Shown: in pieces, positions 5,571-37,051 of the stretch
How the letters are laid out: every line of letters begins with the position of its first letter
How positions within the stretch are numbered: the stretch's first letter is position 1
DNA from: a bacterium
GTDB taxonomy: Bacteria; Patescibacteriota; Saccharimonadia; UBA4664
Assembly: GCA_016699105.1 (NCBI GenBank)
Contig: CP064960.1
Location: forward strand, 1,034,729 to 1,072,714
Reading direction: 5' to 3'
DNA: 37,986 bases
Program-made: the position numbers and the translations under genes
The notes under the pieces: model-generated
The model's database searches: none
The model's input: only the letters and a program-made list of their open reading frames with translations
Told to the model about the DNA's origin: nothing

Positions 5571-5772
5571 CTACCCTAGCTCAGCTTCATCCACCAACTT
5601 CGTCCCATACCTCTGCGCTTTTGTGAGTTTGCTGGCTCCCGGCGATTCGCCGATGATGAGCCAGGTGGTGTCTTTGCCGACGCTAGATTGCTCCTTGGCG
5701 CCCAGGGCCACGAGCTTGGCGGCCACTTCGTCGCGGGTACCCATTTCGAGGGTGCCAGTGATCACGAATTTG
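5571..5772 (-). pseudogene. duplicated 3' fragment of ligA (BRCT domain end), stand-alone 64-codon ORF
   Basis: 5578-5772 aligns ungapped to 6708-6902, with ~21 mismatches in 195 nt by hand count. The translation [63 protein letters not shown] differs from the ligA C-terminus by only 7 conservative replacements. Confidence 0.85.
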
Positions 5773-6682: not shown

Positions 6683-8716
<2,034 letters not shown>

Positions 8717-8760
8717 TTATAAATCGAGGGGGAATCTATTTTTTGCGACATCGTGATTTT

Positions 8761-8800
8761 ATATGCTACAAGGTATGCATTTCATATGCTGTAGCATATC
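8761..8800. promoter_or_regulatory. 40-bp palindrome-containing element upstream of ligA (copy A)
   Basis: The sequence is atatgctacaaggtatgcatttcatatgctgtagcatatc. It contains ATATGCT-gt-AGCATAT (7-bp inverted arms). It is 31/40 identical, ungapped and in the same orientation, to 17579-17618. It lies 63 nt upstream of the ligA ATG. Confidence 0.4.
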
Positions 8801-8873
8801 AATTTGCAATTTACACTAAAGATGAAGGCCAAAAAAACGCGACAGCTCCCGACACATGCGCAATTGTCGCCGG

Positions 8874-14854: not shown

Positions 14855-15298
14855 TTGTTGAATTTACGAGCGAGTTTAGTAATGGTCGCGGTGGTAGCGA
14901 TACTGGGGTGATGGCAGTCAATTTTGGGCACGGCGAGGCCGCTATGGTCAACCCGACGCCAACGGCTACAGTGGCTACAACCACAACAGCGACGAAAGCG
15001 ACGACGGTGAGTGCATCGTACCAAGATGGCACCTACACCGGCGCCACTGCCAGTCACAAATTTGGTAGCGTTCAGGTCAGCGTGACCATCAAGAGCGGTA
15101 AGATCACGGCGGTCGATATTCCCGTATTGCCTATGGGTGACCACGAGTCGGCTGATATCTCCGATTATGCCAGTAGTGAACTCGTGGATCTGACACTGGC
15201 AGCTCAAAGCAGCACCTTCGAACGTCTCTGGCGCCACCCTGACGACGCGCGCTTACAAAACATCATTACAATCGGCGCTCGATCAGGCCAGAAGCTAG
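14855..15298 (+). pseudogene. FMN-binding domain protein (extracytoplasmic), two apparent frameshifts
   Basis: The N-terminus is a signal anchor (L/M)LNLRASLVMVAVVAILG in frame 2, broken at the GGGG run near 14905. The FMN_bind core YQDGTYTGATASHKFGSVQVSVTIKSGKITAVD is in frame 1. The end SGATLTTRAYKTSLQSALDQARS* is back in frame 2. Confidence 0.6.
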
Positions 15299-15300
15299 TC

Positions 15301-15957
15301 ATGCGCCGGGTCGAACACGTCATGGGTCTACCGGTCAGTATTGATGTGCCGCCGCCCGGTGGGATGCTGATCTGGAACCAGCCTTTACCGTAATGCGGCT
15401 GGCTGATGCCCGGTTTAGTCCCTACCGGCCTAATTCAGAACTGTCTCGGTTTAACCGGGGCGAGCTGGCTTCAGCGGACCTGAGTACCGAGTTTCGTGAA
15501 GTTCAACAGGCCTGCATTATCTGGAACCAACAAACTGATGGTTTATTTTCAGCCAATTACGGCTCCCAATATGATCCCAGTGGCTTGGTCAAAGGCTGGG
15601 CGGTGGCCCGCGGGGCGGGCGCTGGAGGAATCAGGATGGCACCATTATTTAACAAATGCCGGTGGCGATATTTTGCCGCTGGCAGGCATGATGATACCTG
15701 GTCCATTGGATTGCAGCATCCGTTGATCAAACAAAAGTTAATGGGTTCACTGTCGGTGCAAACTGGTGCTATTGCCACTTCGGGTACGTACGCCCGGGGC
15801 CAGCATGGTGAACCCACTGACTGGTCAGGCAGCAACAGAGCTGGTAAGCGTTACGGTCGTGGGTGCCGAAATCATACCAGCTGATGTTTTTGCGACTGCT
15901 ATCCTGGCGGGCGGGATCGCGGGTCTACGCCACGACTGGGGCGGCTATGGTGGCTAG
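15301..15957 (+). pseudogene. apbE: ApbE-like FAD:protein FMN transferase, frame-disrupted and short
   Basis: The blocks MRRVEHVMGLPVSIDV, RFSPYRPNSELSRFNRG, DPSGLVKGWAV, NAGGDI, WSIGLQHP, GAIATSGTYARG and NPLTGQAATELVSVTVVGAEIIPADVFATA appear in alternating frames. At least 3 shifts are needed. Confidence 0.6.
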
Positions 15958-17473: not shown

Positions 17474-17578
17474 GGGTGAGGTCGCAATTTATTATACAAG
17501 GTTCGATAGAGTATCGGAAGCAGGATATAAGCTTTCGATTGAGCCAGCGTGGGTGTCTTTTATATTAAATGGGATTTC

Positions 17579-17618
17579 ATATGCTACAACATATGAAATG
17601 TATATGCCACAGCATATC
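17579..17618. promoter_or_regulatory. 40-bp palindrome-containing element (copy B) between tRNA-Cys and tRNA-Leu
   Basis: The sequence is atatgctacaacatatgaaatgtatatgccacagcatatc. It is 31/40 identical to 8761-8800. It lies 106 nt upstream of the tRNA-Leu 5' end. Confidence 0.4.
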
Positions 17619-17664
17619 ATCTCGTAATTATTGCAAATAGAGTAGTGGTATTTCTTATACTCAT

Positions 17665-18048: not shown

Positions 18049-19656
18049 TCAGGCCCGATATCTCTTGAACGGCAACTTCGATGTCAACTGACAACGTTCA
18101 TTTATCGGTTGATACTCTACCTCCCAACGCGAACTGGCATTCTTAATGTCGTCACTATACAGGCCAGTGAGCTGTTCAATCCGGTATTTGCGCTCGGTTG
18201 TCGCATTTTGACGTCCAAATGCAACTTGCCATAGCGATTGTGCATTTTTGTACTGAAGTTGAACTTGGAGATCCTCCGGTGTGAAAATCTCAAGTGCAAC
18301 GAGACGGATTAGCATCCGGCCATGTCTTGTAGATTGACGGTACTCTGTAACATCGTAGCCCAATAGCTTGAGCAAATACATCAACCGTGCATAGAAGTTG
18401 CCGTTCGGCACTGTACTGCCTTGAGCCCACCGTTCAGCTGTAGGATGAACTGTCGATTTGGTGAACTTCGCCATGATGTTGGCTGCTTCCTGGCGCCAAA
18501 CTGAATGCACCATATGAGCGATGCATTCCTGTACTGTTCCGAGAATGCCATAATTACTCATCGCCTGCATCTTCATCACCAATGTCGATGATAAAGCTGT
18601 GTCGCGGTTCAGTTTACGACGACTCTTGCCGACAATTGTCACCAAGTGCAGGAACATACTTGCGGAACCTTCCTGACCACCCTTTACCCATCCTGAAATG
18701 ATCCGACTGATTGGATCGATTTTGCGCAGTCTGGCAATCGTCGGTTCGTCAATCACCAGCCGGCCATCATCCCAGTAGTTGTAGTGGTCAGACAAGAACG
18801 CCGCCAGCGCGTAGACAAAGCGGTGCTTCAACCATGTAATGTCGGCTCGGTTAAAGCCTTCGTCAAAGTTAGGGATACCCCATACTTCATCGATTAGTTC
18901 GAAGAACCTGATGATATTCGCGCGCATTGTGGAAATGCCGCAGTTTTCAGCGATTTTCTGAAGTCCATCAACAATTTCAGCTGATCCATTACTCCGACCA
19001 GGTCCCATGTGGGCGTGCAACCTGGCGACAGTCAGTAGCAAGTTTCGACCCGTAATGACATGCGCCGGAGCCATGTTCTGACTCCACTGAACCCTTCCGT
19101 TCAACTGGAAGTCAGCGTTACGACTCAGCTGCAAAATCATTCGGGCAGCAGTATTTCCCTCATCTGCTGCCAGGTTTCGCAATACTACATTTGCGCCTAG
19201 CTTTGTCTGGAACAAGTTGAGTCGATCGAAACGATCACGCTCCCACGCTCGACTTGTGTTGAAATGGACGACCGCGCCAACTCGCGGCAATACTCCGTCG
19301 TCCATTGCCAACAAAGCACCGGCACGTCGCTGCTGACCGTCAATGATATAAATCCGGCCCGACAGACGCCACGTACCAGATTCATAAGGATATTCAATGC
19401 AGTCGTCGCCGCGCATGCCAAGGTCGATATCTGGCAAGATTTCACCCATACGGAAAGCTTCGGCCAATGCTTCGATCTTCTTGGGCGTCAATTCTTCGCG
19501 CTGATATGAGCTGTCAATTTGTAGGTGCTGCAGACACGTAGGATCGACGTTTCCACGCAAAACCATTGTTTCTGTACCTTCATCTGTAATGATTTCCAGT
19601 AAACCATTTGTAATGATGATCTCGGGAACAGTCGACCTGCTCTTACCTTCCGCCAT
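18049..19656 (-). CDS. ParB/sulfiredoxin-fold DGQQR-motif protein with a large uncharacterised C-terminal region
   Basis: 535 aa, intact, with a TGA stop. The N-terminal ~200 aa contain IYIIDGQQRRAGALLAM, the DGQ(Q/H)R signature of DUF262/DndB-type ParB-like NTPase/nuclease domains. No HNH/DUF1524 motif was seen in the remaining ~300 aa. The RBS AAAGGA lies before the ATG. Confidence 0.65.
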   Translation of the reverse strand: MAEGKSRSTVPEIIITNGLLEIITDEGTETMVLRGNVDPTCLQHLQIDSSYQREELTPKKIEALAEAFRMGEILPDIDLGMRGDDCIEYPYESGTWRLSGRIYIIDGQQRRAGALLAMDDGVLPRVGAVVHFNTSRAWERDRFDRLNLFQTKLGANVVLRNLAADEGNTAARMILQLSRNADFQLNGRVQWSQNMAPAHVITGRNLLLTVARLHAHMGPGRSNGSAEIVDGLQKIAENCGISTMRANIIRFFELIDEVWGIPNFDEGFNRADITWLKHRFVYALAAFLSDHYNYWDDGRLVIDEPTIARLRKIDPISRIISGWVKGGQEGSASMFLHLVTIVGKSRRKLNRDTALSSTLVMKMQAMSNYGILGTVQECIAHMVHSVWRQEAANIMAKFTKSTVHPTAERWAQGSTVPNGNFYARLMYLLKLLGYDVTEYRQSTRHGRMLIRLVALEIFTPEDLQVQLQYKNAQSLWQVAFGRQNATTERKYRIEQLTGLYSDDIKNASSRWEVEYQPINERCQLTSKLPFKRYRA

Positions 19657-20983: not shown

Positions 20984-21427
20984 CTACCGCATGAAATAAG
21001 CCAGACTCATGCAAAGTGTGATGGTGGCAATTTGAGTGTATACGCCGAAGAGATCATTGGTCTCGCGCTGTATGCGGCAGTGCCAGTCCCAGAACTGCTG
21101 AATGGGTCCGCGTCTGAGGCCGGGTACCAGAACAGTCAGTGTATCCAGATCGGGTGCATTGGCAGCGGCCGCCCCGAGCCAAATCATGACAGCTCGATCT
21201 GGGTACCAGCTAGCTACGAGCCCGACGAGCAGCCCAGCTAATGTCAGATCAAAAAAGATACGGATATATGTCCGGCGGGTGGGGATATACGGAGCCAAGG
21301 TTTCCTGCCAGTGAGGTATGTGATCGAGTACAAAATGACTGGCAACAGCGGCTGGCAGAGCTATCCAAGGGCTGGGCATGAGCGCAGCGATGGCGGCTCC
21401 AGTCACTGCGTGAGGAGTAGTTAACAT
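20984..21427 (-). CDS. YdjM/DUF457-like membrane-bound metal-dependent hydrolase
   Basis: 147 aa. His-rich blocks TPHAVTGAA and SHFVLDHIPHW are embedded in 4 hydrophobic helices. Confidence 0.5.
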   Translation of the reverse strand: MLTTPHAVTGAAIAALMPSPWIALPAAVASHFVLDHIPHWQETLAPYIPTRRTYIRIFFDLTLAGLLVGLVASWYPDRAVMIWLGAAAANAPDLDTLTVLVPGLRRGPIQQFWDWHCRIQRETNDLFGVYTQIATITLCMSLAYFMR

Positions 21428-21787
21428 AATTCTATTGTATACGGTTTATACCCGAATGACTTGTGCTGGAGAAGTTACCAGTTGAACGATCGGTAAGTCT
21501 AGAAGATTGATGTACATTGTAAAAACAGCGACGCTAAAAGGTTAGGTATGAGCAAACAAGATTTGTTGCAAAATTTGTCACAGAACGAGATGCGCTCGCA
21601 GAATTTGAAGCTATTTATCAAGTGAAGACAATCTAGACCATCTAGTCTACTCCACCTGGATTTGTTCGGGACTTGCTAGCGTTATTGGCTGCTTGCGTAG
21701 CGTTTGTCTGAAACGTGGAGGCAATGGCGCATGAGCGCAACCGGAGCCGCTTAAGGCCAATGAAGTTAAATTGAATGACAAAGTGTA

Positions 21788-22133
21788 TTAGATAATATTC
21801 CATCCACGCAATGCTTCCAGTAGTTTACCGCTACCAAGAATCAGGCCAACCGCTGATAGTTTCGCCCGCATCCGGATGTTAGATCCCACCGAATGCGCCC
21901 AACTGGAAGCACACCAGCCTTTTGCTTCATGTCAGCGTCGGATAATTTGAGGTACCACTGTTCGCTATTAAAGCAAGCTTTGAGGATGAGATGCAAAGCG
22001 CACAGAACGAATATCTGGTTTGTCGAAAACTGCGCACCGTAAACTCAATGGAAGAACCGTTGATTTTAGAGTCGATAACCTCCTGCTTCAAATTCCTTAT
22101 AACATAGATGCACCCCCCACTTCCGCCTCCCAA
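21788..22133 (-). pseudogene. divergent, frame-disrupted copy 4 of the NRMRAK-ending small gene family
   Basis: Minus-strand frames give ...NGSSIEFTV..., LCALHLILKACFNSEQWYLKLSDADMKQKAG and SNIRMRAK (core ttcgcccgcatccgg at 21861-21875). Block order matches the family (W.LK..SSE.., DLHAMLK..W..L..ADEQKPA.., NRMRAK). The similarity is weak. Confidence 0.35.
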
Positions 22134-22620
22134 GTCCCGCCACCCACGCCACCTGTCTCACCCGCCACCCACTGCTTGTTACCTCAGCCTTCCACGCTCC
22201 CGCCTTGTTCTGTCCCACCTTCAGCTCCACTATCCACCCAGCCTCTTCCTGCGCCCTCTGCCACCTTACCTTTTCCTTCCTGCCCTGCTTCCGCCTGCTC
22301 CTATGGACTGTTCACATTCTTCCTCAGTCTTCATTTTTTCCTTCACTCAAAACTCTTCAAAACTCCCATTCACCTTCTGTTCTTCCTGTTCTTCGCTACG
22401 CTGTCTCCTTTCTATGCTCACTCCAGCTCCTTCCTTCCCACCACCCGCTTCCCACCCACCCTACCATTCCTTGCTCACCTTCACCCCCTTCGCCTCCCAG
22501 TCCCTCATGCCCTGTCCCTGCCCAGCTGTCCTTCGCCCGCGCCCGCCCGTCCCGTTTACTGCTTCCTCGTTCCTTCTTCACACATTCACTTCCACTTCAT
22601 CCTATATTTCACCAGATAAC
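22108..22620 (+). repeat. ~500-bp polypyrimidine low-complexity tract (non-tandem)
   Basis: My hand count over 22111-22610 gives ~10% G, ~12% A and ~78% C+T. All three forward frames are open (track ORFs 22020..22619, 22108..22677, 22205..22639). There is almost no GG dinucleotide. C3 runs give G-quadruplex-type motifs on the minus strand at 22444-22461 and 22536-22553. Confidence 0.85.
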
Positions 22621-23340
22621 TTTCGCTGGTTATTTCTGAAACCCAACTATAATGATTTGATTGGAATACTTGTTTAAGAAACAGCCTCAGCTATCAAAGA
22701 GTTTCAGACACAAATTCCATATATCCCACCTTTAAAACCAAGATCATTTCAGTTAAACACAACAGCAGATTCTACTCCCAATTTCTTCAGGTCCAACTTA
22801 ATCACACTCTTTTATTTTAGAGCACAGCTTTGATGTTGTTAATCACATGACATTTTTAACTGGTTCTGACTTAAACCACTGTTGTCCTGTAATGGTCTTT
22901 AGATACTGCAGCCATCTGCACATTTAGCTTCACTGTGGAGTAAACATCAATACATTTTCCATTCCATCAACAGGTCAACAGTCAACAACGCTTGACGATA
23001 TGATTTCCGCAATTTGTTTATAATATTAATGATACTGGCAAAGATTTGTCGTTTTGTACTATTTTCAAATGTCAACTGACGATTTCGCCAATCCTGGTGA
23101 TGGTTTGATGGTCGGCAACTGCGTAATATTCATGGTCGTTTATCAACATCTGATCCGAATTATGAAACAGTCACACTTTTATGATTGGTTTCTGCGAACT
23201 CAACAAGACAATATTTGATTTAATTTGTTTTTACCCAAATGTGATATATTTCGGCAATTTGTAAGTTGAGTCCGCCATAGTTAAAACATTAATACCGCTA
23301 CCCCATATTATTCTGTTTAAACAGTATGAAACTAATTAAT
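22621..23340. other. AT-rich segment with no ORF of 60 aa or more in any frame, with short iteron-like repeats
   Basis: No track ORF lies here. The plus strand is G-poor. atttcCgcaatttgt (23003-23017) and atttcGgcaatttgt (23248-23262) are 14/15 identical, with a partial third copy at 23082-23092. gtcaaca occurs in tandem at 22974-22987, and gtcaac recurs at 23071. Confidence 0.6.
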
Positions 23341-24157
23341 TTATCACAACCAATGATACAAAGACGGAACGTCCGCTTCGACACGCGTGCCGCCGTCCAA
23401 AGAGCACAAGAATACGTGATCGATGCCCGCCCTTGCTGTACTTGGTTCACTCTTCAACATGTCACCCGGTGAATGCAGAGCGTGCATACAAAGATATGTC
23501 AGTTAACTGTGGTTTCACCACCGGTAAGTTGTATGCTTAGGTGGAACATGTTGGCTTGTTAAAACCCAAAAGAAACGCGCTTTCGATAACAGTAATCTCC
23601 GCCATCCAGCCCGCACCTCAGACCCTGTCACCATGTTCCAGACGCCGATATGTGGAATCCCATGTCGGCATGTCGCCACGCTGGTGTTTACGTCGGTGTT
23701 AGCGAACTGTTTCGGCATCGGGGCCGAAAAATTTCCGGGCGATCATCTCGAAGTGACCGAAGTCGTCTTCTGCCCTGACCTGAATGGCCAACGAATCGCC
23801 ACTCGAGCAGACCTTCAGCGATGGCTGCTTCGAATGCAGCCCGTGACTGTAAGCGTTTTCTCGGCCAAGCGTCCTTATCGGTCATGGTCTTGTAGCGACT
23901 GTCGAAGTCGGCAGCTACGATATTTCTCCTCAAGGGTTGAACGTGCGTGATGGATAAAAAGCCCGGTAGACTGACCTAATATACAGCAATTATGAATATT
24001 TATCGAAGATATTTGGTCGCCCTTGTTGACGGCTGGCGACTTATGGTGTTGCTGAATTTTCAAGAGAGGTAATGAGGTCCGAGACTGTGCAATCCTTATA
24101 GCTGTAAACTGGAGTGAGCGTATCCATGACATTGGCGGATCATCAATCACATCTGTC

Positions 24158-24397
24158 TTAGATACCTTTATGTTTGAGCCATTTTATGGCAACGTGCCGT
24201 TGTTGGGGCGTTAACGTGACCTGGCGATAAATCTGTGCCATATGCCACTGAATTGATGGCTGGGTATCACTAGTAAAGATCAGATGAAAATTTGTCGATA
24301 TAAGGTTTAGCCAAACGGGATGAACCCGGCAGATTTTCTCGAGGGCATCGGCTGCCCGCATCCGCACCTCAGGCATCTTCACTAAACAGGCAGTCAC
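24158..24397 (-). pseudogene. C-terminal fragment of a DNA-alkylation-repair (AlkD-like HEAT-repeat) protein
   Basis: VRMRAADALEKICRVHPVWL...QPSIQWHMAQIYRQVTLTPQQRHVAIKWL fits the C-terminal ~80 aa of that family. The expected ~150 N-terminal residues are absent, and a terminator lies at 24517-24543. Confidence 0.4.
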
Positions 24398-24516
24398 AGT
24401 TCCGATAGGCGTTGGTGCTCAGCCAAAACAGTATTAATGACGGCCGGCACTTCGCCGAGCGAGTTGGGCTTACCGCGCGAGAGCATTGATGCAAAAATTA
24501 CCCGTCATATAGCTAT

Positions 24517-24543
24517 TAAAACAAAAACTTCCGTTTGCGGAAG
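24517..24543 (-). terminator. probable rho-independent terminator (minus strand)
   Basis: The hairpin cttccg-tttg-cggaag is followed on the minus strand by TTTTTGTTTT. Confidence 0.4.
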
Positions 24544-25539
24544 CCTCATGAATAGTGGCGCAGTTGGACCTCGGCGCGGTGCCGAGGGTCCAACCCCTAC
24601 TGATTGTTCACTACGTTCAGTACGCGGGCGAGGTCTCGCTCAAGATTTCAAGCGGCACCGAGACCGGCACTGATGGGGTTGAGGCGACCGGCCCCACTTG
24701 ACGAGGTTGAATGCCACTGAGCCAGTCAATCGAACAGCGCTGTAGCTATCCACTTCCGGAGCTTTGCCCTCAGTGACCATGCCGTGCGCCTGTTCCTCGG
24801 TACATCGACAGCAGCGTTGCCACCAGCCAGATCGACGAGCTTGCCAGCAGTGGCGCACCCGACCACTCGAGTGCCATCCCAGACGGCAACACCTACTTCA
24901 GAGGGCTGGCTGACCCTGCGCGCCAGCCTGCTGCGACATTGCCACCGAAACGCGTGGGTACGCTGTAGCCGAAGGTGTTGGTCGGGAACATGACGGCAAT
25001 GGCGATGCTCAGGTGCATAGAGCACTCGCTTGTCTACCATTCTGGATCTGAATGACGGTACCCGGATGCCCGGCGGTGCGTGACTCCCAGATGGGCACAT
25101 TGCCAGGTGCTCGTAGGATTTGTGCACCGCTGTCACGCATGAATGCCACCGTGCCAGGATGATCACAGGTAGCGGTATCGCCGATGATCTTGCCATCGTT
25201 GTAGCGCAGCACCATATTGCCACTATCATCATCTTGAGCTGGTAGAGACCATTCTCGGAAGAGATGATGCGGCCCGGAAGGAGCTGGTCGCCCGGATCGA
25301 GCTGAAGCCCAAACTTTAAAGCCGCTGCGCCGGACTATTGACAGCGTGATTGTGACCAGAACAGACACAAATGCAGCTGCCAAAGTCTGGTGATTCTGCT
25401 GAGCCGTCTGTTCATGACACTCCTCGTGAATTGTCGGTGAACGAGCAGGACTTTTGCTACTATACAATGATAGATAATGCTTCTTTGTCCACACTTCAAT
25501 TTTCTGCATGCCTAGCCCTCAACAGCTACTTCAAACCCA

Positions 25540-25886
25540 CTCATAAGCCATTTTTTTTGTATATCAATGGTGAAACGAAGTCACTTTGGTTTACATGCTT
25601 CGGCTTACCGCCACTTTTGGTGTTGACTTCGTCAAAAAGGTCGAGCTGAATACACGAAAGAAAAACCAGACGTTTTCATCGCTATCGGTACCAGCCATAT
25701 CGGCAAAGGCCTGTGATTTTTCGTCGCCCATTTCTTGTTGTTTGAGGTCTTCGCCCCGGCATTCGTGCGCCATTGAAGGGCACCATGTTTCATCCACGAG
25801 TCGCGGCCATCTTCAGCCATTTTCTGGTAGTCAGCTTCTTTGCCTTTGGGCACTACGAGTACAAATCCATCTACATATTTAGCCAT
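25540..25886 (-). pseudogene. DUF1428-family protein, frame-disrupted (3' limit approximate)
   Basis: GGGAGAA RBS, then MAKYVDGFVLVVPKGKEADYQKMAEDGRDSWMKHGALQ. After that, ECRGEDLKQQEMGDEKSQAFADMAGTDSDENVWF and the tail are in other frames. Confidence 0.55.
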
Positions 25887-27113
25887 CTTAAGTTCTCCCA
25901 CCCATTAACAATAGTTACTAATTTAGTTTAGCACTATGCCGAAGTATCTGACTATTAGGATACAATGATGCATAAGATGAAGAAACGCATTTATACTTAT
26001 CGTTTATGTCCGAATTCACGTGATCTACCCGTTTTACGTCATTATGTTTGGCGATCATGGCATGTCGGCAGCTGGAAGTGCTGGCTTATTGCTAGCCGTC
26101 TGGATGATAGTAGCGGTATTGGCCGAAGTTCCCACCGAGTCATCGCCGACAAAATGTCAAAGAAATGGTCGCTTGTGCCGACGAGTCATGCAGCTAGTGA
26201 CCTTATGATCTGTTGTTCTTTCCAAATTTTAATGGTTACTGCTCGGATTTGTCATTTGGGGCAAAGTAAAGCCTTTATTTCCGGTGTTCCAGGTCGCCTT
26301 AATCGTTGGGCGATACTAGCAAAAATCATTTGGGCGAATTTACGCACGCACAGTGCTTTTACCATGGCAGCTGCAAAGCGCCAGTTTGGTGGCGTCGCGC
26401 TATTGAATTTACAATATACATTATTGTTTACACTAAGGTTCTCGTGAGCACTATCTCGCCGGAACACATTGAGCCTACCAGCCATGCATAGAAAGGTTGA
26501 TGTCGAAGCTGCCAGCTTCGCCACCATCTATTGCATTCAAACACCAGAAAGTGCCACGTTGCGACGAATACTCATTACGCCGTCATCGTGCAAGGCTTCC
26601 CGCGGGTATGCTGTGAATATTTGCCAGTCTATTAGCAACCAGGTAGGCACACCAACACAATGGGTGGCTTTACTTATCAGTTGGCAGTGTCACAGCCGTT
26701 GTCATGTACTGCGGATGCATCACTTGAAGAGCACATATCGCGGCACCAAATTTGTTTATTATCTTGGGATTTACGACTCTCTTTTGCGCTTAGTTTTCTT
26801 GGCGGCAACAAATTGGTTGCGATCGGTTTCTTTTACTCACGAGGATGCTACGGTATTAGCGGTACATAATGAAACCCAACCAGCATCAAGCGCTCAACGA
26901 GTCACGCGCCACACTCGGCTCATCTACTCGTTTGCCGGGCAAAGTACTGTCGGGCAATTCTTTTGAGTCGGCTTAGATTTTCCAGACGGAAAATTGTAAT
27001 TCCGATTCGCTGGCGGCATGTGATGATACCGATATTTTTATTAAGTTGGCTTGGTAATATTCGTCCGCCTGATCAGATTTGGTACGGGAATGTGAATACC
27101 AATCTCTTAGAAT

Positions 27114-27143
27114 AAAAAGCGCCCAAACTTGGGCGCTTTTTTT
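27114..27143. terminator. bidirectional rho-independent terminator
   Basis: AAAAA-agcgccca-aact-tgggcgct-TTTTTTT: a perfect 8-bp stem flanked by an A-tract and a T-tract. A plus-strand reading frame stops at 27113-27115 just before it. The minus-strand tRNA-like cluster ends at 27153 just after it. Confidence 0.8.
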
Positions 27144-27152
27144 GAATTATTC

Positions 27153-27227
27153 TGGTGCGGGTACAGGGATTCCAACTTCGGACCTCCTCCTTGGCAAGAG
27201 GCGCTCTAACAGCTGAGCCACACCCGC
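27153..27227 (-). pseudogene. decayed tRNA-Gly(GCC)-like sequence
   Basis: It is 75 nt. The acceptor gcgggug/uacccgc is intact, ACCA is present and the loop uugccaa is correct. The 5' anticodon stem has only 4 nt (cctc versus ggagg). The D loop lacks GG (agctgtta). The T stem cgaag/ccctg pairs at only 3 of 5 positions (one a G-U wobble), and the T loop is ttggaat. Confidence 0.6.
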
Positions 27228-27239
27228 GTAATGTAAACC

Positions 27240-27346
27240 GGTGGCGAGATTCTCGTCATGTCGCTTCGCGACCAGCGCACGGAATTTTTGCTTTTAAATT
27301 TAGCAAAATGCACGTTTGCTGCCGAACCGAGCGACGGTTCTCGTCC
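27240..27346 (-). other. tRNA-like fragment with a long AT-rich hairpin insert
   Basis: The 3' end ...gagaatctcgccacc and the 5' end gg(a)cgaga could form an acceptor stem. The centre holds a ttttgct/agcaaaa 7-bp hairpin. No canonical cloverleaf can be drawn. Confidence 0.3.
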
Positions 27347-27359
27347 GAAATGTAACAGA

Positions 27360-27437
27360 TGGTGGCGAGACTCGACTCGAAACTGAGGACATGAGGCTTC
27401 CCCAGGCCATTTCGTTTTACCAACTGAGCCAACTGCC
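27360..27437 (-). other. tRNA-like fragment (degenerate)
   Basis: ggcagttggctcagttggtaaaac... has a D-arm-like start, ...tttcgag... is T-loop-like, and the 3' end is tctcgccacca. The acceptor and T stems do not pair. Confidence 0.3.
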
Positions 27438-27545
27438 GGGCCGATGATCACCGAAAAGGTACTGCAGTATCGTACATTAAATAGCCGTCGGCAACGGATC
27501 GGCTTCAAGTGGTCGCATTGCAGCATTTGCTGCAATGGTTAGCCG

Positions 27546-27880
27546 CTACGGATCGGTTTGTGATTTGACGAGATAATCGTCACTCCAGCCGCTTGACTTT
27601 GTCGATAATTTCGGGATTGTCGACATTGGTTAGTACGATGATTTTGGCCTCTTGGCATGAGCGTCTTCGTAGATTAAAGGGTCTTGAGAAAATCGTATAT
27701 ATCACACCATGCCAGCTAGCATGAGATCAACCAAAATTATGTCAAAATCTATTTCGACTGCACATGGCCAGGCTTCACCGGCGCTGCCCACAATTTCGAC
27801 TTCAAATCCCGCTTTGCTAGACCATAGCCATACATACGCTGCATCTCCGGAGTATCTTCGATCAGCAATACTTTGGGCAT
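27546..27880 (-). pseudogene. single-domain response-regulator receiver (copy B), frame-disrupted
   Basis: ATG at 27880, then MPKVLLIEDTPEMQRMYGYGL. The blocks GFEVEIVGSAGEAW, DIILVDLMLAGM and AKIIVLTNVDNPEIIDKVKRLGVTDYLVKSQTDP* follow in other frames. Confidence 0.6.
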
Positions 27881-28272
27881 TAGGCGGCTCGGGACTTCGC
27901 CGGGGTGAGTGTAACCGGCGATACCTCCTTTCTTGACCATATCGGCCACCTGTTTGGGTTCATATTCACTTTGACGATATATTTGACGGCGCCTTTGGTC
28001 AGGGCGGTTTCCTATGTCTTGCTCACCAGCTAGGTTGGTGAGCATGATCACGGGCGGATTTGCGTCAGGATCGCTCTGAGCTTTTCCAACACTTGAAATC
28101 CGTTCATTTTAGGCATCGCCACATTTGTTAAATGACCGTTGGTTTTTCGGATTGGGCGAGGTCGAGCCTCTTTGGCCATCTTTGGCCATGACTACCCGTA
28201 CTGTTCAAACGTGAAGATCTTTTGCACATCCGGACATCAGCGGGTCGTCTTCGATGATAAGTACTTTACTTA
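27880..28272 (-). pseudogene. single-domain response-regulator receiver (copy A), frame-disrupted, start codon lost
   Basis: The blocks KVLIIEDDPLM, MPKMNGFQVLEKL, VIMLTNLAGEQDI and KYIVKSEYEPKQVADMVKK appear in changing frames. AAGGAG sits at 28277-28282 but no start codon follows it. The stop overlaps the next ATG (TAATG). Confidence 0.55.
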
Positions 28273-28280
28273 GTTTCTCC

Positions 28281-30677
28281 TTATGATTTAGATTGTACGT
28301 TATTTCTGAGCAATCGGCACGTTATGGCAAAGGTCGAACTGGAACCAAGCGTTGATCGATGTTCTAAGTCACCATTCATGGCTTTCTCATATGTCTTTGG
28401 ATATGTACAACCCTAAACCAGTCGAGCGGGTCGAATCACGTGAGGATATCGTCGCTAGCTTGCTGAAACTTGCGGAAGAGCAAATGTTTAGCCTCGTGCA
28501 ATACCTACCCGAATCTTTAATCAGCAATCACTCGAATCGACTTGGCAAAACCGATTGAGATTTCGCCCTTTATCGCAATTTGAGGGCGTTACCGATGAGG
28601 TTGGTAATGACTTGAGCTAACCGATCGTAATCTGCCCACACAAGTGATATGCTTCGCTGGCCAGTATTTTGACTGGCACCGATTGGCTGGGTTTGAGCAG
28701 CAGATTGCGATTGATCGATTTGGCGGTTCGGCACAGAGCCACCATATCGACTGATTCCAGCTTAAAGCGAATTCTTCCTTGTTCGAGCCGAGACGATATC
28801 GAGGAAGTTAGCCATCATCGCAATCAGACGCGCTAGAGCTGCAAATGCGCGTCGCCAAGCATCGACTTTACATCTGGGTTCTGATTTTATCGCCAGTACT
28901 GTTGATCATGGTAGTATTACCCCCCAGGTTAGTGGCGTACGGAGTTCAGTATTGGCATAGAGAAAAACTCATCCTGAGACCGCCTGAGGTTGGGCCAAAT
29001 CGCACGTCGTCATAATACAACTACCCCAGTAATTTTTGTTCTCTCTTGGCGGTCATGACCGGTTGTAAGGTAATGTTCATAATACGCCTTGAAACTGAAG
29101 GTTATGAAACGTTCAGGATGAGCTTTATCTTGAGACATTTATTAATTTTTGCAATGAGGCCGAAGTATTGATCGAGACACCAGTAAGAATATTGGGCTCA
29201 ACAATGGTTTGACCCCCTTGGAGCCCTTGTTCCCTTCGATAATTTGCAGCTGAGTGGCGGTGTTTGCCATCACTATTTGACCGCGTGCATCTGTCATTAC
29301 GAAGCCAATATTTATAAGCTATTTGATGGAGCGGCGGTAACTTCTGGCATGCTCAGCCTGAAACCCAGCTGTAGCTCGAACCACCGCCGTCAACACTAGC
29401 TTTTCATCGCGTAGTTGATCTTTCAAGAATTTTTGCCTTGAAAGCGACGCCGTAAGTTCATCGCGAGATTGTTGAGCTCGGCATTGGCTTTCGGCTTAAT
29501 AACGACGTCACCAAGGCGCCTGCCAGCCCCAAACCAACGAGTAGCTTCTTCAATTTATTATGGTCATTTGATTTGAATTTGTCAGCTTTCTTGAGTCGGT
29601 ATATTCACCGCATTGAGCTCAGCCCGGTGATTCAGTGCCACCTCTGATGTCACGATTCGTCCACGATCTAGTTGGCCTTTGGCTGTAATCATGAAGATTG
29701 CGGCCAATGATTGAGCAGTTTTTTACCACCGAGTAGTGAGGTCAAAGTGCGTACTTGCATAAACAACTTCGGTCATGTTTGATTGCTTGGCAAAACGGCT
29801 TCAGCCATAGTACCCAACACTTAACCGCTAATTCTCCATATTAGAAAAGACCATATTTGGCGAACGCTCATTATAACCGTGATTGCCATGATGGTTGACT
29901 TACTGGCCCAGTGACGGAATCACCCATGAAACCGAGTCCAGGTAATACCACAGCCGATAACGACCAGTGTGACAAGTAATACATGTTGGCGCTGGAGGAG
30001 TAATGCTTGGCGACGGTCTTTGGTACTTGTGCGCTCATTCGGTACAGGACACCGAGCCGACCGGCAGCGGCGAGAGTTACTAGCATAGACCAAGCTACGA
30101 ATAGATATGAGACTAAGGTAGTAGGCGCTTCATAGCCCCATGCAAGTCGTTCTGAAAGCAATGGCGTAGGAAAAACACCATCACCAGCTACAAGTCCTGA
30201 TATGATCATGGCACCGGCAATGAATACGGCTGGTGTGCGCCAACTATCAGACAGCCGGCTGCGATCGGTATAACTGCGGATGAATAGATAGAAGAATACT
30301 GGCAGAAAGCTTAACAATCCGAAGTTTATATGGCTCCAAAAAGCATTGCCAGCGGGTGAGTTGGTCAGACGCTGGGCAGTTTCAAAAGTACCCCACAGGG
30401 CGTTAAAGATAATAAACAAAGCAAACCAAAGCATGGCTTGACCTTCATTGGGACGACGAGCCAACACGACAATGAGTGTTAAATTCGCAATCGCGCTGAC
30501 CGCCGGTACAAGAGCAAACCAATTGATACCCATGGAAAACGATGCCGGAACTGCATTTGACACAGCCACAAGGATGGCCGCTACAAATATAAAATTAATT
30601 ACAAACAAAGTAATATCAAACCAGACTGTCAACGCTGATATATATTGTCCAGTTTGTGATCGTCGCCGATGAAACAT
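28281..30677 (-). pseudogene. 7TM-sensor histidine kinase (copy 2): N-terminal sensor intact, kinase part shattered
   Basis: ORF 29871..30677 is an intact multi-TM sensor region. Below ~30000, minus-strand frames show DEFFSM..ELRTPLT (H-box with the His codon destroyed), LARLIAMMANFLDI, TGLGLYISKDI and STLGSSSTFAIT, with a stop at 28281-28283. Confidence 0.6.
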
Positions 30678-30682
30678 GCTAT

Positions 30683-32965
30683 TTAAGTATCCTGCTTTGA
30701 GAGTTTAAAGCCAAATGTAGAGCCTTTGCCTTCGATTGATGAGAATATAAGCTGGCCTCCCTGATCTTCAATAACGCGTTTAGCCAAATACAACCCTAAG
30801 CCGGTGCCATCGGGTCGCACCGACTTGGCATTGGCTGCTCGGTAAAACTTTGCAAATAGCTTAGATTGCTCAGCCATTGGTACTCCCATGCCTGTATCCG
30901 ATACGGTCAAGATGACATGGGTTTTGGTTTGTTCCAATTTGACGTGTACACCGCCGGTTTCAGTGTAATAGAGAGCATTGTCAATGAAGTTCATGATTAC
31001 TTGCCGCGTTTTTGATTCATCAATACTTAAGGTCACCGGAGTATCGGGCAATTCGGTCGTGAGGGTGAGCCCCTTGCGGGCGGCAGCTGGTTCGAGCTGG
31101 TGAATTTCTTGTTGAACCATTTTAACGAGCTCGGCGGGCTGGCGTTGAATCATGAAACGGCCCGAATTAAGCCGGGAGACATTGAGCATATCACCGGACA
31201 TGTAGACCATTTTTTCGGCGGCTTCTAGCGCATAACTGACGAATTCTTTTTGGTCGGCTGTTAAATTGTTTTTATCGGAGTCGAGGGTCATAGATAAATA
31301 GCCGGTGATGGCTGTCAAGGGTGTGCCTAGTTGATGGCTCGCCATGGAGATAAATTCGTCTTTGGTTTTGTCGAGAGCCCGCAGATTTGTATTGGCGATT
31401 TTGAGCCGTTTGGTGGCGTCTCTGATACGTTGCTGCAGCGTGACGTTAAACTGAGAAATTTCGTCGTAAGCTTTGGCGTTGGCGACGGCGACTGACAACT
31501 CTTTGCGCATTATCTCTAGGACAGCTAGATCTTCATTTGAATAGACTGTGCCAGCTTGCTTGTCACCGAGTGCTAGGTAGCCCACGAGTTCACCGTGAGC
31601 GCGCAGTTGAGTAACAACCTGGATGCCTTGTGCCACCATGACGTGCTTGGCATGAGCGGCCGGCATGAGGTCAGCCACCATCAAGGGATGTTTGAACACT
31701 GGTAAACTGTCAGGACCGAGTGGCGCCACAACCAGTTTGCCGTGGGCAGTTTGACCATAGACCGACTTTCCTTCCATGACGACCAGTTGGGCGTTGACGA
31801 GGCGCATCGTTTTAGTTAGTTCACGTAAGAATTTGTTCATGAGTGGGTTGAGTTCGAGTTCGGTGGCAAAGATACTCGATACCCGATCCAAGAGCGCCTG
31901 AGCGTCGTAGTGATCACGGAAGAACACACGGTCGGTAGCCCGCTCAAAGAATCGGCGCAAGGGTGGGAGGAAAATGCCAGCAAAATGGCACCGATAATAT
32001 AAACCGCGTTTTGGGTGGGTGTGAGTTCAAGTCCGGGTATAATTGCGCCAGCTATGCCGTACATAGCAACGAAGTAGAGAATTGTTAGCGCCAAGAGTAG
32101 CAATATAAATGCCACCGATCGTGCAACTAGCCAACGAAAGTCAAACATTTTATGCGCGACTATGGCATAACTAAAACTCCCAACTAAAAACAACGTAAAA
32201 TATATAGCCAAAACGAGAAATACTCTTGGATTATGTGCTAGTATCGGTAATGCTACGTTCGTAAACAGGGCGATGCCGATTGTAAGTAAAAATCCCAGAA
32301 ACACATATGTCAGTTGTGTTCTTTCGACTTGCAAGGATGACCGCTTAAATTTACGTGATAAATTTATGAGCGCATACATAAGCCAAAAAATATAAATCAT
32401 TGGAAATATTAGATACAAAGGTCCAGGTATAACATTATTTCCCTGAGATTTGAAGTAGTCACGGCGCTAATGACATACTCGCCGAAGAAAAGTACCAAAA
32501 TCGTTGCAACAATCGATGAGATAATGGCTGAAATATTGACTAAAGTACGGGTACTAGCCGAGAATTTGGCTGAGTTTCTGGAAAGTAGAGCGAGAATGCC
32601 GCTATCATATGTATTGTCCAAGCAGCGGCGGCAAATGGCACTCCAGCTAAAATCTTAAACAGTGGGTCAGATATGTTGGCTGTTTGGTCATAATATCCGG
32701 TTGCGCTCCAGACGATAAGTCCCAATACGAGGAGTCAAAAACACGATTCAAAGGCCGATTTGGAGATTGAAGCCATACACACTAGTGCTAAGCCAGTATT
32801 AATTACTAGCACAATCACGAGTGATATGAGAGAAATATTCATATTGCTTAAGCTTAAATTACCATAAATTGACCTCAATATCCATGTATCAACACCGCTG
32901 TTTGTTGAAATGGACCGCCAGCAATTAAGCCGGCGGTCCACGCTCAGGTGTTCAAACGGGTCCAT
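30683..32965 (-). pseudogene. 7TM-sensor histidine kinase (copy 1): kinase part intact, sensor part with apparent frameshifts
   Basis: ORF 30683..31960 is intact. It has the H-box SMASHQLGTPLTAITGY, the N box NFIDNALYYT, and the G boxes DTGMGVP and GTGLGLYLAK. The TM region is split over ORFs 31837..32418, 32409..32621, 32540..32725 and 32735..32965, with shifts near 31960, 32410, 32545-32620 and 32730. The start is uncertain (ATG 32842 or 32965). Confidence 0.7.
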
Positions 32966-33050
32966 TTCTCCTTATCTTGTCGTCGTATTTCTACGTTGGA
33001 TGCCGCAAGCTCAGAAAATTCGTCAGCACTCGGCATTTCGGGAATATCAG

Positions 33051-33616
33051 CTACATCTGCAGGATCAACGTGGGAAACAACACCGAAAAGTTGTGCGGCT
33101 CCAGAGCAAATACTGATCCCAAAGACTGAAGCGGGTTAACACCGACGAGCCAGATGGGCTCTTTGGTAGCTGGTCCACCATCCATTTCTCGCGAATCTAA
33201 CATGCCAAATATTTGAAACGGATAGGTCGCCAATGATTGAGCAATATCTCGCGGGCAGTTAATATCCAATATTCTCCCAGCAGATATCCATCATAGGCAG
33301 CAGATCCGGTAGCCATGAGAAATGCACGACGATTAATTCCGCCAAATCGCGACGGTTCTGCATACGGCCCAGGTGGCAACACAATTCCACGCTTGATGAA
33401 ATAATGACCTGATGGCAACTGGTCAATATTTTGCCGGACCACACGAGCGCAGCTGACTGGTCTACCACCGAGTTCAACCCAATAGTGCCAGGAATACCGA
33501 TCAAATTCATCGACCGGAGAAGCGCTACCGAGCAGTTTGCGAAATGCCACAAGTCGCGCTTGTCGCCAATACGGTAAACGCGCGGTGCCGTATGAGCTGT
33601 GGAGTACTAAATTCAT
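33051..33616 (-). pseudogene. GNAT-fold N-acyltransferase of the LuxI / N-acyl-amino-acid-synthase type (tentative), one apparent frameshift
   Basis: RQARLVAFRKLLG, VDEFDRYS, SCARVV and AEPSRFGG recall the conserved R..F..W / E.D..D / R / E.SRF pattern of acyl-HSL and N-acyl amino acid synthases. The frame changes near 33265, continuing into ORF 33051..33269 (INCPRDIAQSLATYPFQIFGMLD...). The ATG overlaps the upstream stop (ATGA). Confidence 0.45.
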
Positions 33617-34368
33617 ACCTCAACCTTCGTCCGCGTAGCTACGACCATCAGATCATTGCCGGCATATGTCCGATAGTGGTTTTGGAGTTGCCAGTACCGA
33701 GGTTCGAGCCAAGCTAAAGTCGTAGCTTCATCGCTCATATGGAGTTGGCCACTGTGTCGCAAAATTTCATCATTGATGGCCACGAGCGGCGCCAGTTCAG
33801 TCTGCAACATGGCCAGTTCGGCTCCGACATCGAGACCGGCTGCAGCAACTACTGCTAGGTGTTCTTTAAGTACCGCCATCATGTTTGGTTCTGGCATCGG
33901 GTTTGTGAATACGAGTACTCCATTCGGCTTGGTCACAGCGGCAAATCGTCGGATGAGGGCACACGGATCGTTACTGGCATAGACAGCATGACCGCAGTGG
34001 ACTGCGTCAACGGGCTCTGGGATAAACCAAGTCGTGTGGGGCTGATCGATATCGGCTACCCGGCAGTCTACGTGGCCATCGTAGGGCTCACACTGAGCTC
34101 GGGCTATCATGTCTGGTGACTGATCAATCAACAAAACGCGCGGTTTGGGCAGCGCTGGATCGCTTTGCAACGCCCACAGCAATCCGCCGTCGCCACCGGC
34201 TGCATCGAAAATCGTTGACGTTGGCTTGAGATTGATATGACTGTTCATCTCAGAAATGGCGGTCAGCAATAGCTGTCGGTAAGGATGCAGGAGCCGCAAC
34301 CGACCATAGTACTCGGCATATAACTTCCAGATCTCTGCCATAGACAGGGAGGTTAGATCCACAGTCAC
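33613..34368 (-). CDS. class I SAM-dependent methyltransferase
   Basis: 251 aa and intact. Motif I is IFDAAGGDGGLLWAL, and VLLIDQSPDM and GVLVFTNP are also present. Confidence 0.7.
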   Translation of the reverse strand: MTVDLTSLSMAEIWKLYAEYYGRLRLLHPYRQLLLTAISEMNSHINLKPTSTIFDAAGGDGGLLWALQSDPALPKPRVLLIDQSPDMIARAQCEPYDGHVDCRVADIDQPHTTWFIPEPVDAVHCGHAVYASNDPCALIRRFAAVTKPNGVLVFTNPMPEPNMMAVLKEHLAVVAAAGLDVGAELAMLQTELAPLVAINDEILRHSGQLHMSDEATTLAWLEPRYWQLQNHYRTYAGNDLMVVATRTKVEV

Positions 34369-34426
34369 TTACTCCTCAGTCGAGATGTGATAGTGCTAGG
34401 GAGTGGTCACTCCCTCTGTAACTATT

Positions 34427-35482
34427 TTAATTGCTCGGGAGAGGGAACGCCACGTCCGGTAATGTCGGATCCAAGCATTTGGTCAGCGCCGAAATAAACT
34501 GATGATTATGTTCGCGTAAACCGACAGTGATTCTGACACAACCAGCAAGCCGTGGCAAATTGCTCAGATCGGCGATAGCAATATCATGATCATTACATGT
34601 ATGAACGAGTCTCTTGGCTGTGGCATGATCGGGACACTTGAGTAATAAGAAGTTTGCTTCCGATTGAAATAAATACCAGGTTGGAGGCAACAAAGCTTGA
34701 CAAGTCTCATAAATCAATTGTCGTTCTTTTATGACTTTCTGAATTTGCTGTTTCACCCAAGAGACATCTCGGTCATAAGCTAACATTTGTTTGACTATCT
34801 GGCTCGTAAGCGAACTAACCTGAAATGGCGTCTGTAATCTCGTAAGTTCACTGACGGTGCGTTCGTTGGCAATGAGTGCACCACAGCGTATGCCCGCAGC
34901 GCTCAACGCCTTTGACAAGGTGCGCAGAACTATAAGATTTGAAAAATTGTTAATTAGTTTTAGTGTAGAGTTGCCAGCAAACTCGGCATAGGCTTCATCG
35001 ACCACGAATAAGGTTTGAGGACAGCGTCGCAGCAGTCTTTTTAGCATAGGCAGTGGTATACTCTGCCCTGTAGGATTATTGGGGCTGGCAAACATAACCA
35101 TCGATTGTTCAGGTAATTTACCAAGTTGGTTTTCATCAAATTCGAGATGTTCATCTAGTTCCCACGTCGAATAGGCAATGCCAAATGCCTGACAATATTC
35201 CTCATAATATTGAAACGAAGGCCGCGCAATTACGATGTATCCTTGAGGTTTGATGGCATAATGGGTAAATAACAATCGAATAAACGCGCTGGAGCCGGGT
35301 GCGACCATGAGCTGTTCTGGCCGGCAGCCATACCACAACGCCAATTCAACAACCAGGCTTTGAGCGAATGGTTCTGGATATATGTTAAAAGCGACATTTG
35401 ATATTTTATCGGCAATGCGCCGTTTCAGCTCCATAGGTATATCATGCGGCATTTCATTGCGATGTAAAGCTACTGGACTCAT
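34427..35482 (-). CDS. PLP-dependent class I/II aminotransferase, HisC-like
   Basis: 351 aa and intact. The blocks LHRNEMPHD, NIYPEP, ASPNNPTG, VVDEAYAEF and VLRTLSKALSAAGIRCG (PLP lysine context) are present. Confidence 0.75.
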   Translation of the reverse strand: MSPVALHRNEMPHDIPMELKRRIADKISNVAFNIYPEPFAQSLVVELALWYGCRPEQLMVAPGSSAFIRLLFTHYAIKPQGYIVIARPSFQYYEEYCQAFGIAYSTWELDEHLEFDENQLGKLPEQSMVMFASPNNPTGQSIPLPMLKRLLRRCPQTLFVVDEAYAEFAGNSTLKLINNFSNLIVLRTLSKALSAAGIRCGALIANERTVSELTRLQTPFQVSSLTSQIVKQMLAYDRDVSWVKQQIQKVIKERQLIYETCQALLPPTWYLFQSEANFLLLKCPDHATAKRLVHTCNDHDIAIADLSNLPRLAGCVRITVGLREHNHQFISALTKCLDPTLPDVAFPLPSN

Positions 35483-36458
35483 GAGGCTCTCAGCACAAAC
35501 ATATAGGTATTGGGCACACCTAAGACTTGGCGATCAATCAGTTTGAGCCCACTGCGGGCAAAACGCTGCTCATAGTAAGCCAAGGGAAACGTTTTGATAC
35601 CCCTCATGGCATGGACCAGTTCGAACCCCAAAGGTAAACACCGGATACTGAATACCAGCATTTTCGTGCTCATCCTGGCAGGTGTCGGCTAGTACGAAAT
35701 ATTTGGCATTGGGAAACGACTGCCGCAATTTTGTAAACAAGTTGTCGTCAAGCTCCGGCATATTAAATAAGTCATGGAGCATCATGTAGCTCATGACCAG
35801 GTCAGCTTTGGCCAGCTCGGGATGGGGTTCGGATATGGTCGTGAACACGTTTTCGATGATCAACTCTAAGCGGTTCTCTAGTCTGTGTTTTGCTCGTTCG
35901 TGCTGAGCGGCAGTGATGGCGCCAGGATCAATGTCGATGCCAATACCAGACAGCTGCGGACGACGGATGAGTAGTTCGGCTAAGCGGCCAGCATTGCCAC
36001 AACCTAAATCAGCAACGCAGGTAGCTGGTAAACTATCCAGGATTTGCGCAATTGGTTTGGGCCATAATACGCTGGTGGGCTTCGTCTGATCCGATAGCCA
36101 CGTAGTTACCGCGCACGTGGGCATGCCAATCGGTTTGGGGATTCATCAGATACTGATCCATATTTTCAAGTAGTGGACCATAGCCGCCAATCGCCCAGGT
36201 AATAAAGCCGATGTGTTGCTTGAGTTCGACGCCAAGCTCGGTTAAGTAATAGCGGTCATCACGCAGGGTGGTGGCACCGGTCGCAGTGGTTATTAGTAAT
36301 ACTTGTTTGAGGCGATTTTCATCGAGGCGACGGGCGATCACCATCCCTGTTAAACTCATACCCATTTCTAAATCATCGAGTAATTCCAGTTTGGCGAGGC
36401 AATAGAGACTATACGACAAGAGTAGATCGTTAAATACGGTTGCCGAATTGATGGTCAT
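35479..36458 (-). pseudogene. O-methyltransferase with N-terminal winged-helix dimerisation domain, two apparent frameshifts
   Basis: ORFs 36033..36458, 35570..36124 and 35479..35673 join to one 980-nt gene, with shifts near 36085 and 35630. Motif I is VADLGCGNAGRL, and DLVMSYMMLHD is also present. The stop overlaps the aminotransferase ATG (ATGA). AAGGA lies 6 nt before ATG 36458. Confidence 0.65.
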
Positions 36459-36495
36459 AGGTGTCCTTGGTTATTGTTATTGGTTTTTAACAAAA

Positions 36496-36510
36496 CTGAC
36501 AAATTGTCAG
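36496..36510. promoter_or_regulatory. 15-bp palindrome upstream of the biosynthetic operon (candidate operator)
   Basis: CTGACA-AAT-TGTCAG has perfect 6-bp arms. It is centred 45 nt upstream of ATG 36458, inside a 216-bp intergenic region. Confidence 0.35.
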
Positions 36511-36674
36511 GCCATTTGCGCTGTGGGTATTTAATTTTCAAAGAAATTATTTGGAGGTTATGATAAACCGCTGCCATACCGTTGTGAGATCGCCCAATAG
36601 ATGCTATTTAAGCATAAGCGATTTGAGGTCGTCACGCCAGGGGTTTAATTGTTATTTCGTCAGGGTGGCAGCCA

Positions 36675-37019
36675 CTACTTTGACCACCTCTTCCGGCCGG
36701 TAGTCGCTTTTTGGATGAATTTGGTGGCACCAGCGGCGAGGGCAGCTTCGGCGGTAGCTGTATCGGTCAAACTGGTCGTAACTACTACTGGCACATGCTG
36801 CCATGCTCGGTTGGCGCGTAATTTGGTAAGCATTTCGATTCCCCCGACTTTGGGCATGACAACGTCGAGTAAGATTACGTCGGGCAAAGACTGCTTGACG
36901 GCAACCAAGGCGGATTGGCCATCGCCGGCAACTTTAACTGTAAAACCTTCGTGTTCAAACACAACTTGATACATATGGCGGAGTAATTCATCATCTTCGA
37001 CGATCAAGACTGTGGGCAT
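36675..37019 (-). CDS. CheY-like single-domain response regulator
   Basis: 114 aa and intact. It reads MPTVLIVEDDELLRHMY...DVILLDVVMPKVGG...VPVVVTTS...GATKFIQK. No output domain is present. Confidence 0.85.
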   Translation of the reverse strand: MPTVLIVEDDELLRHMYQVVFEHEGFTVKVAGDGQSALVAVKQSLPDVILLDVVMPKVGGIEMLTKLRANRAWQHVPVVVTTSLTDTATAEAALAAGATKFIQKATTGRKRWSK

Positions 37020-37051
37020 AGATACAGACTCCTGTTAATAGATTGCAACTG

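Follow-up and report, generated by a model that had tools for sequence, protein, structure and literature searches.

How does a stretch of about 8.6 kb with no credible intact gene, and with one of its sharp edges inside a kinase gene, come to lie in a bacterial genome? The question was raised by a preliminary description of a 37,986-nucleotide (nt) piece of a Saccharimonadia genome (GTDB lineage UBA4664; assembly GCA_016699105.1, contig CP064960.1, positions 1,034,729–1,072,714), hereafter the window, which offered three explanations: a decaying accessory island, a segment assembled from low-quality reads, or a chimeric join including foreign DNA. To address it, we compared this tract (window positions 21472–30034) with independent public short-read contigs of the same Saccharibacteria (TM7) bacterium, from more than 10 other samples. 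The tract is a data-quality artefact and not a real biological feature, as seen from its colinearity with intact references, the composition of its errors, and its edges. We consider it very likely that this is an assembly or consensus artefact in which ~8.6 kb were left uncorrected at the accuracy of a single raw long read.

The open reading frame (ORF) listing bore out the absence of credible intact genes across 21472–30034. The gene-poor stretch begins at the stop codon of a YdjM-like gene (20984–21427, minus strand), and between 21430 and 29870 no ORF exceeds ~200 amino acids (aa), with the exception of three overlapping ORFs at 22020–22677 that stay open because stop codons are rare in G-depleted sequence. 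Reading through TGA, TAG, or TAA did not restore long ORFs in the tract, and a stop-codon-recoded region was thus ruled out, since no single stop rescued the ORFs. Six-frame Pfam searches, although too insensitive at the noise level of the tract, yielded only weak minus-strand matches (HisKA_7TM, HATPase_c, Response_reg, and DUF1428), in agreement with the kinase, two receivers, and DUF1428 gene recognized earlier, and no match on the plus strand. The DUF1428 gene was split across two frames, and a membrane protein was scattered across three. Rfam searches at both gathering and permissive thresholds returned only a degraded tRNA in the tract (27156–27227, 40.8 bits, missed by ARAGORN) plus sub-threshold matches; with protein-coding genes at this position in relatives, a large non-coding RNA locus was also ruled out. 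A search for tandem and dispersed repeats found none flanking the tract.

Synteny in 80 species-level relatives ends at the YdjM-like gene; in the closest of these (L001), the YdjM-like gene has a kinase gene as its immediate neighbor. The band-7 protein adjoining the tract shares 86% identity with its best match among Saccharimonadales metagenome-assembled genomes. Near-identical public contigs were reached by an exact-protein look-up of the YdjM-like protein. One of them (L081) is 99.4% identical to window 21546–16464, and four others (L083–L086) match the window at 100% as far as 21471 and diverge beyond, position 21471 being a strain-variable junction. Beginning at 21472, the window reads like L081 with errors, which places the left edge of the tract at 21472. 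At the other end, a gene located outside of the tract and designated kinase 1 (30683–31960) has a 99% homologue of 718 aa (P0002), and the contigs encoding this homologue (L087–L092, six samples) carry kinase 1 followed by kinase 2, both receivers, tRNA-Phe(GAA), and tRNA-Gly(GCC), all intact.

Comparison with L087, which is colinear with window 37986–27142, located the right edge of the tract at 30034. In 250-nt bins, positions 30035–37986 are 97–100% identical to L087 almost without indels, and the few divergent patches are mostly indel-free, with substitutions mostly at third codon positions. Below 30034, identity drops to 75–91%, and each bin contains 8–40 substitutions and 10–25 indel columns. 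Discordance sets in with a 2-nt insertion at 30033–30034, and the 643 nt at 30035–30677 differ from L087 by 10 transitions and nothing else. Both edges are thus sharp to a few bases, i.e., sharper than previously claimed, and the right one does fall inside kinase 2. The apparently clean 268-aa N-terminal ORF of kinase 2 (29871–30677) runs slightly past this edge only because the indels nearest to it add up to multiples of three. A search with this ORF returned no match even though L087 encodes a near-identical N-terminus in its 797-aa kinase, which looks like a false negative of the word-indexed search and not evidence for an orphan. Exact-protein look-ups of two flank ORFs were also negative, probably owing to differing start-codon calls or strain differences, and scans of the metagenome collection with a 30-mer from L081 and with a 171-aa protein encoded in the tract (P0241) gave no match.

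Between these two ends, three contigs (L093–L095) carry intact MFS transporter, DUF1428, 268-aa, and HEAT-repeat genes, and L094 also includes the 171-aa gene and the start of a short-chain dehydrogenase (SDR) gene. These contigs are 89.5% identical to window 27158–23680, with 114 gap openings. Four more (L096–L099), found through P0241, extend the map leftward past the 171-aa gene and add intact SDR and DinB-like genes. Overall, nearly all of the tract has a colinear counterpart in the reference contigs, in which every apparent wreck is intact. What had been read as an AlkD-like C-terminus is in fact a full-length HEAT-repeat gene, with window fragments identical to the reference product (P0122) wherever readable, and the supposed membrane-protein remnant ending at 27115 is a full-length MFS gene. 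Recovery of intact ORFs upon re-polishing had been proposed as the mark of an artefact, and the reference contigs in effect provide these intact ORFs.

Identity to the references varies along the tract, from ~88% over 23680–30034 to ~70% over 23040–23680, ~51–64% over the SDR body (22620–23040, relative to L096–L099), ~63% over 21800–22090, and ~87% over 21472–21800. Two segments, 21547–21625 (80 nt) and 22100–22620, have no matched counterpart. By comparison, the references are 98.8–99.9% identical among themselves with 0 gaps, both from kinase 2 to tRNA-Gly (L087–L092) and across the HEAT/171-aa segment (L093–L095). The window, on the other hand, lies 10–12% away from all of them, with 114–120 gap openings per 3.6 kb, and these differences are therefore private to the window.

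The tRNA genes are affected in the same way. Of the three tRNA-like sequences initially reported, two correspond to genes that are intact in the references, tRNA-Phe and tRNA-Gly, and the third was not found. In tRNA-Phe, the anticodon loop reads CTGGGGAA in the window where CTGAAGA is expected, and the GAA anticodon is destroyed along with parts of three stems. The anticodon stem of tRNA-Gly lacks one base and its T-arm pairing is broken, and the spacer between the two tRNAs also carries errors. The preliminary description had also singled out two terminators as perfectly preserved. One of these (27114–27143) is indeed identical to L093, but both fit chance error-free runs, of which the tract contains 24 of at least 40 nt.

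Next, we examined the composition of the differences. Relative to the references, the tract carries ~6.8% substitutions and 3.7% indel events. Over 23680–30034, these amount to 431 substitutions and 232 indel events (145 deletions and 87 insertions), i.e., an indel:substitution ratio of 0.54, compared to ≤0.06 in the flank. On the minus strand, G>A and A>G substitutions are each observed 97 times, versus 40 for C>T, 31 for T>C, and ~21 on average for each transversion type, so that A<->G changes outnumber C<->T changes 194 to 71. This purine/pyrimidine asymmetry was evaluated on the L087-aligned part of the tract (p = 3e-5), whereas the two classes are balanced in the flank (124 vs 144, p = 0.63). 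Among inserted bases, A and C (25 and 17) exceed G and T (6 and 5) about fourfold. Errors are also clustered: 40.6% of error columns adjoin another error column versus 12.4% expected if errors were independent, and only 4.1 perfect runs of ≥40 nt would be expected. Substitutions at codon positions 1, 2, and 3 number 60, 61, and 100 in the tract, versus 74, 58, and 292 in the flank, and tRNAs and spacers carry errors as heavily as coding sequence. In raw nanopore reads, deletions are the commonest error, A<->G substitutions are 3–5 times as frequent as transversions when the read strand is respected, C<->T substitutions are only slightly commoner than transversions, and error rates rise steeply at abnormal translocation speed (PMC8486125). 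The error profile of the tract is this published profile: as in these Oxford Nanopore reads, deletions are the top indel type, the A<->G excess follows the read strand, and errors are clustered. Duplex mutation over evolutionary time would not yield an A<->G excess on one strand that is equal in both directions.

These patterns bear directly on the first of the explanations offered, a real decaying accessory island in which inactivated genes gathered stops and frameshifts in this strain. As in the pseudogene-rich regions of reductive genomes such as those of Mycobacterium leprae, Sodalis, and Rickettsia, the tract is a run of recognizable genes, homologous to functional ones, that are broken by frameshifts and stops. 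It also takes in two junctions that vary among strains, 21471 and tRNA-Gly, and genuine small band-7-like and HEAT-like fragments lie in the spacer that separates the SDR gene of reference contig L097 from its DinB-like gene, both of which would suit a decaying island. However, natural decay produces far more substitutions than indels, with a nearly strand-symmetric spectrum, spares essential tRNAs, and leaves flanks comparably divergent, and the tract departs from it in all these respects. Its indel:substitution ratio is too high, its A<->G excess is strand-specific and equal both ways, and it lies 10–12% away from the references right beside a flank that is 97–100% identical to them, with one boundary within a gene. 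Loss of tRNA-Phe(GAA) or tRNA-Gly would be lethal if these were single-copy, as is usual in such small genomes, yet the anticodon of the former is lost and the stems of the latter are broken. Identity also falls gradually into the low-complexity part of the tract. Together, these five lines of evidence refute natural decay, and we regard a decaying island as highly improbable. It is even less plausible that the tract is real and reflects a strain-private, localized, and strand-asymmetric hypermutation of 8.6 kb including two tRNA genes; if so, the two tRNAs would have to be replaced from another source, either second copies or the host.

The left part of the tract raises a separate issue, as the segment at 22100–22620 is ~50% C and 7–13% G, and its identity to L097 (~50%) is that of random sequence. 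It is positioned where L097 has ~640 nt of spacer. This segment and its very noisy shoulders may represent a collapse of base-calling: the quality within the read would fall towards 22.1–23.7 kb, down to ~0.5 kb of junk that consists solely of purines on the strand of the read. Alternatively, all or part of the tract could be of foreign origin or stem from unrelated molecules wrongly joined, which would be compatible with the aberrant composition (7–15% G) and lack of detectable homology across 22100–23050, and with the unmatched 21547–21625. However, all but the ~0.5 kb of junk and these 80 nt align to Saccharibacteria contigs in the same order and orientation (22620–23040 at ~51–64%), these contigs also match the flanks or overlap one another, and the junk at 22100–22620 stands where L097 has a spacer of similar size. 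Searches of 21472–25513 and 21472–23700 against phages (including lambda, checked as a possible source of control DNA), plasmids, and E. coli returned no match. The foreign DNA explanation is thus unsupported, and we regard a chimeric join as highly unlikely. The L097 spacer itself (1787–2428) includes fragments similar to the band-7 N-terminus (70%) and to the 3′ part of a HEAT-repeat paralogue, as well as sequence found upstream of the YdjM-like gene in L083–L086, and looks like a genuine small rearrangement scar.

The explanation by low-quality reads is the one that stood, with the tract a noisy, colinear copy of intact sequence bearing a single-strand signature of sequencing errors. This noise may also have had another origin, for instance PacBio continuous long reads (CLR) or other raw reads used by a scaffolder to fill a gap, a collapsed consensus of strains, or a deliberate perturbation. 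The mixture of L081-type and L083-type variants in the window at 21463–21471 points in this direction, as does the frequency of two-base indels. On the other hand, deletions exceed insertions and A<->G changes dominate, both of which fit nanopore reads and fit the PacBio CLR error profile less well. Errors are also private to the window and not a mix of known alleles, and they are bursty and context-dependent and not independent. Taken together, these observations make another origin of the noise very unlikely.

We thus propose that one raw long read, most likely from a nanopore, was left in the contig in the minus-strand orientation of the window. The assembler would have bridged a strain-variable segment with this read, which polishing never corrected, while the flanks are polished consensus. 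Polishing likely failed for want of reads on this path, as supporting reads would be too few because the tract spans the strain-variable junctions at 21471 and tRNA-Gly. The window lies on a 1,322,297-bp contig, which fits a long-read assembly. The real genome harbors here an ordinary, gene-dense segment with, in minus-strand order, kinase 2, two response regulators, tRNA-Phe, tRNA-Gly, the MFS gene (on the opposite strand), DUF1428, the genes for the 268-aa protein, the HEAT-repeat protein, and the 171-aa protein, SDR, a spacer of ~770 nt, the DinB-like gene (on the opposite strand), and the YdjM-like gene.

Several points weigh against this proposal. The platform, the single-read origin, the cause of the failed polishing, and the base-calling collapse at 22100–22620 are all inferred. 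About 1–2% of the differences are real strain variation, the references being from other samples, and no single reference spans the whole tract or covers its two unmatched segments. Two-base indels are unusually common (66 vs 131 one-base events), although alignment scoring may contribute to this count. Finally, the error of the tract (~12%, and >30% around 22–23.7 kb) exceeds the 6–8% reported for 2020-era base-callers (PMC8486125).

Gene-fragmenting errors in long-read assemblies were reportedly described by Watson and Warr in 2019. As in such assemblies, the leftover indels and substitutions of the tract mimic pseudogenes through frameshifts and premature stops, and the flanks of the window display the sparse form of these errors common to long-read assemblies generally (~0.2%, mostly deletions). 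Unlike the usual case, however, the tract is one 8.6-kb block ~50-fold worse than its flanks, at raw-read accuracy, and including pure junk. The fragmentation of genes by long-read errors has also been reported elsewhere (Kastor paper, PMC12007338). For the present contig, the region is biologically ordinary, i.e., a segment of two-component, tRNA, and accessory genes, and annotating it as is would call roughly a dozen false pseudogenes and make tRNA-Phe and tRNA-Gly seem absent. Left uncorrected, the contig would inflate apparent gene decay in a candidate phyla radiation (CPR) genome, and it needs re-polishing before being used for pseudogene, tRNA-complement, or coding-density statistics. 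The features of the tract, as deduced from the references, are listed below.

Table 1. Features of the noisy tract, with positions in the window and the evidence behind each assignment
Feature	Position	Strand	Basis
Noisy tract	21472–30034		Identity to reference contigs, segment by segment
Kinase 2, true gene 797 aa (HisKA_7TM, PAS, HisKA, HATPase_c); 30035–30677 clean, remainder garbled	28300–30677	−	L087 11610–14003
Response regulator, true gene 131 aa	27880–28271	−	Intact in L087–L092
Response regulator, true gene 136 aa	27477–27880	−	Intact in L087–L092
tRNA-Phe(GAA), garbled	27360–27437	−	Reference contigs
tRNA-Gly(GCC), garbled	27153–27227	−	Rfam and reference contigs
MFS transporter, true gene 395 aa	25968–27115	+	L093 7322–8509
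DUF1428 gene, true gene 126 aa	25512–25886	−	Pfam and L093–L095
268-aa protein of unknown function, in GC-rich segment	24617–25415	−	L093 9062–9868
HEAT-repeat (“AlkD-like”) gene, true product 166 aa (P0122)	23990–24486	−	L093–L095
Gene for 171-aa protein (P0241)	23426–23918	−	L094, L096–L099
Short-chain dehydrogenase (SDR), true gene 224 aa; alignable part is the 5′ third only	22680–23297	−	L097 1065–1739
G-depleted, CT-rich junk	22100–22620		Composition and L097 alignment
DinB_2-family gene, at least 129 aa in L097	21626–22010	+	L097
Spacer upstream of YdjM-like gene; 5 substitutions and 4 indel events in 75 nt	21472–21546		L081

Beyond these features, the site 3′ of tRNA-Gly (window 27142–27158) holds other DNA in related strains. 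In L087, a gene at 15171–15878 encodes a recombinase zinc-ribbon domain (24.1 bits, just below the Pfam cut-off), and the first 7280 nt of L093 carry, beside the MFS gene, an N6/N4 methyltransferase, an SNF2-type helicase, and a DUF4238 gene. L087 and L093 could represent the two ends of one integrative element absent from the strain of the window; the core that they share at this site is only about GCACCA.

Outside of the tract, the flanks carry ~0.2% deletion-type consensus errors relative to L081 and L087, as the window lacks bases in genes that are intact in L081, and genes split or fused there are intact in the references. At or below 21427, all indel differences to L081 are bases missing from the window. 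Among the flank errors, a 4-nt loss at 18612–18615 fuses two genes into a 535-aa ORF (18049–19656), deletion of a C at 31971 splits the 718-aa kinase 1 into ORFs of 193 and 425 aa, and insertion of a C at 36059 splits a 325-aa methyltransferase. The gene for NAD-dependent DNA ligase (6683–8698) is also split, into a 186-aa N-terminal ORF (8138–8698) and a 365-aa C-terminal ORF (6683–7780) separated by an unassigned gap, probably through another consensus error. A 202-nt direct repeat (5578–5779 and 6708–6909, 88% identity) has one copy at the 3′ end of the ligase gene and the other overlapping the 5′ end and upstream region of the neighboring 303-aa gene.

A DUF3800-II RNA motif (RF02961) was detected at window 2940–3003 on the minus strand, with 63 bits versus a gathering score of 43.2. 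At 436–2182, modules of 50–57 nt recur every ~0.9–1.0 kb with 76–94% identity (repeat families D2, D3, and D5), a pattern suggestive of paralogous genes or cassettes arranged in tandem at the window's left end. Lastly, a palindrome-rich element of ~60 nt (CATATGCT...AGCATATG), found as both a direct and an inverted repeat, occurs twice at a distance of 8.8 kb, in the intergenic region beside ligA (8755–8822) and between tRNA-Leu and tRNA-Cys (17556–17629).

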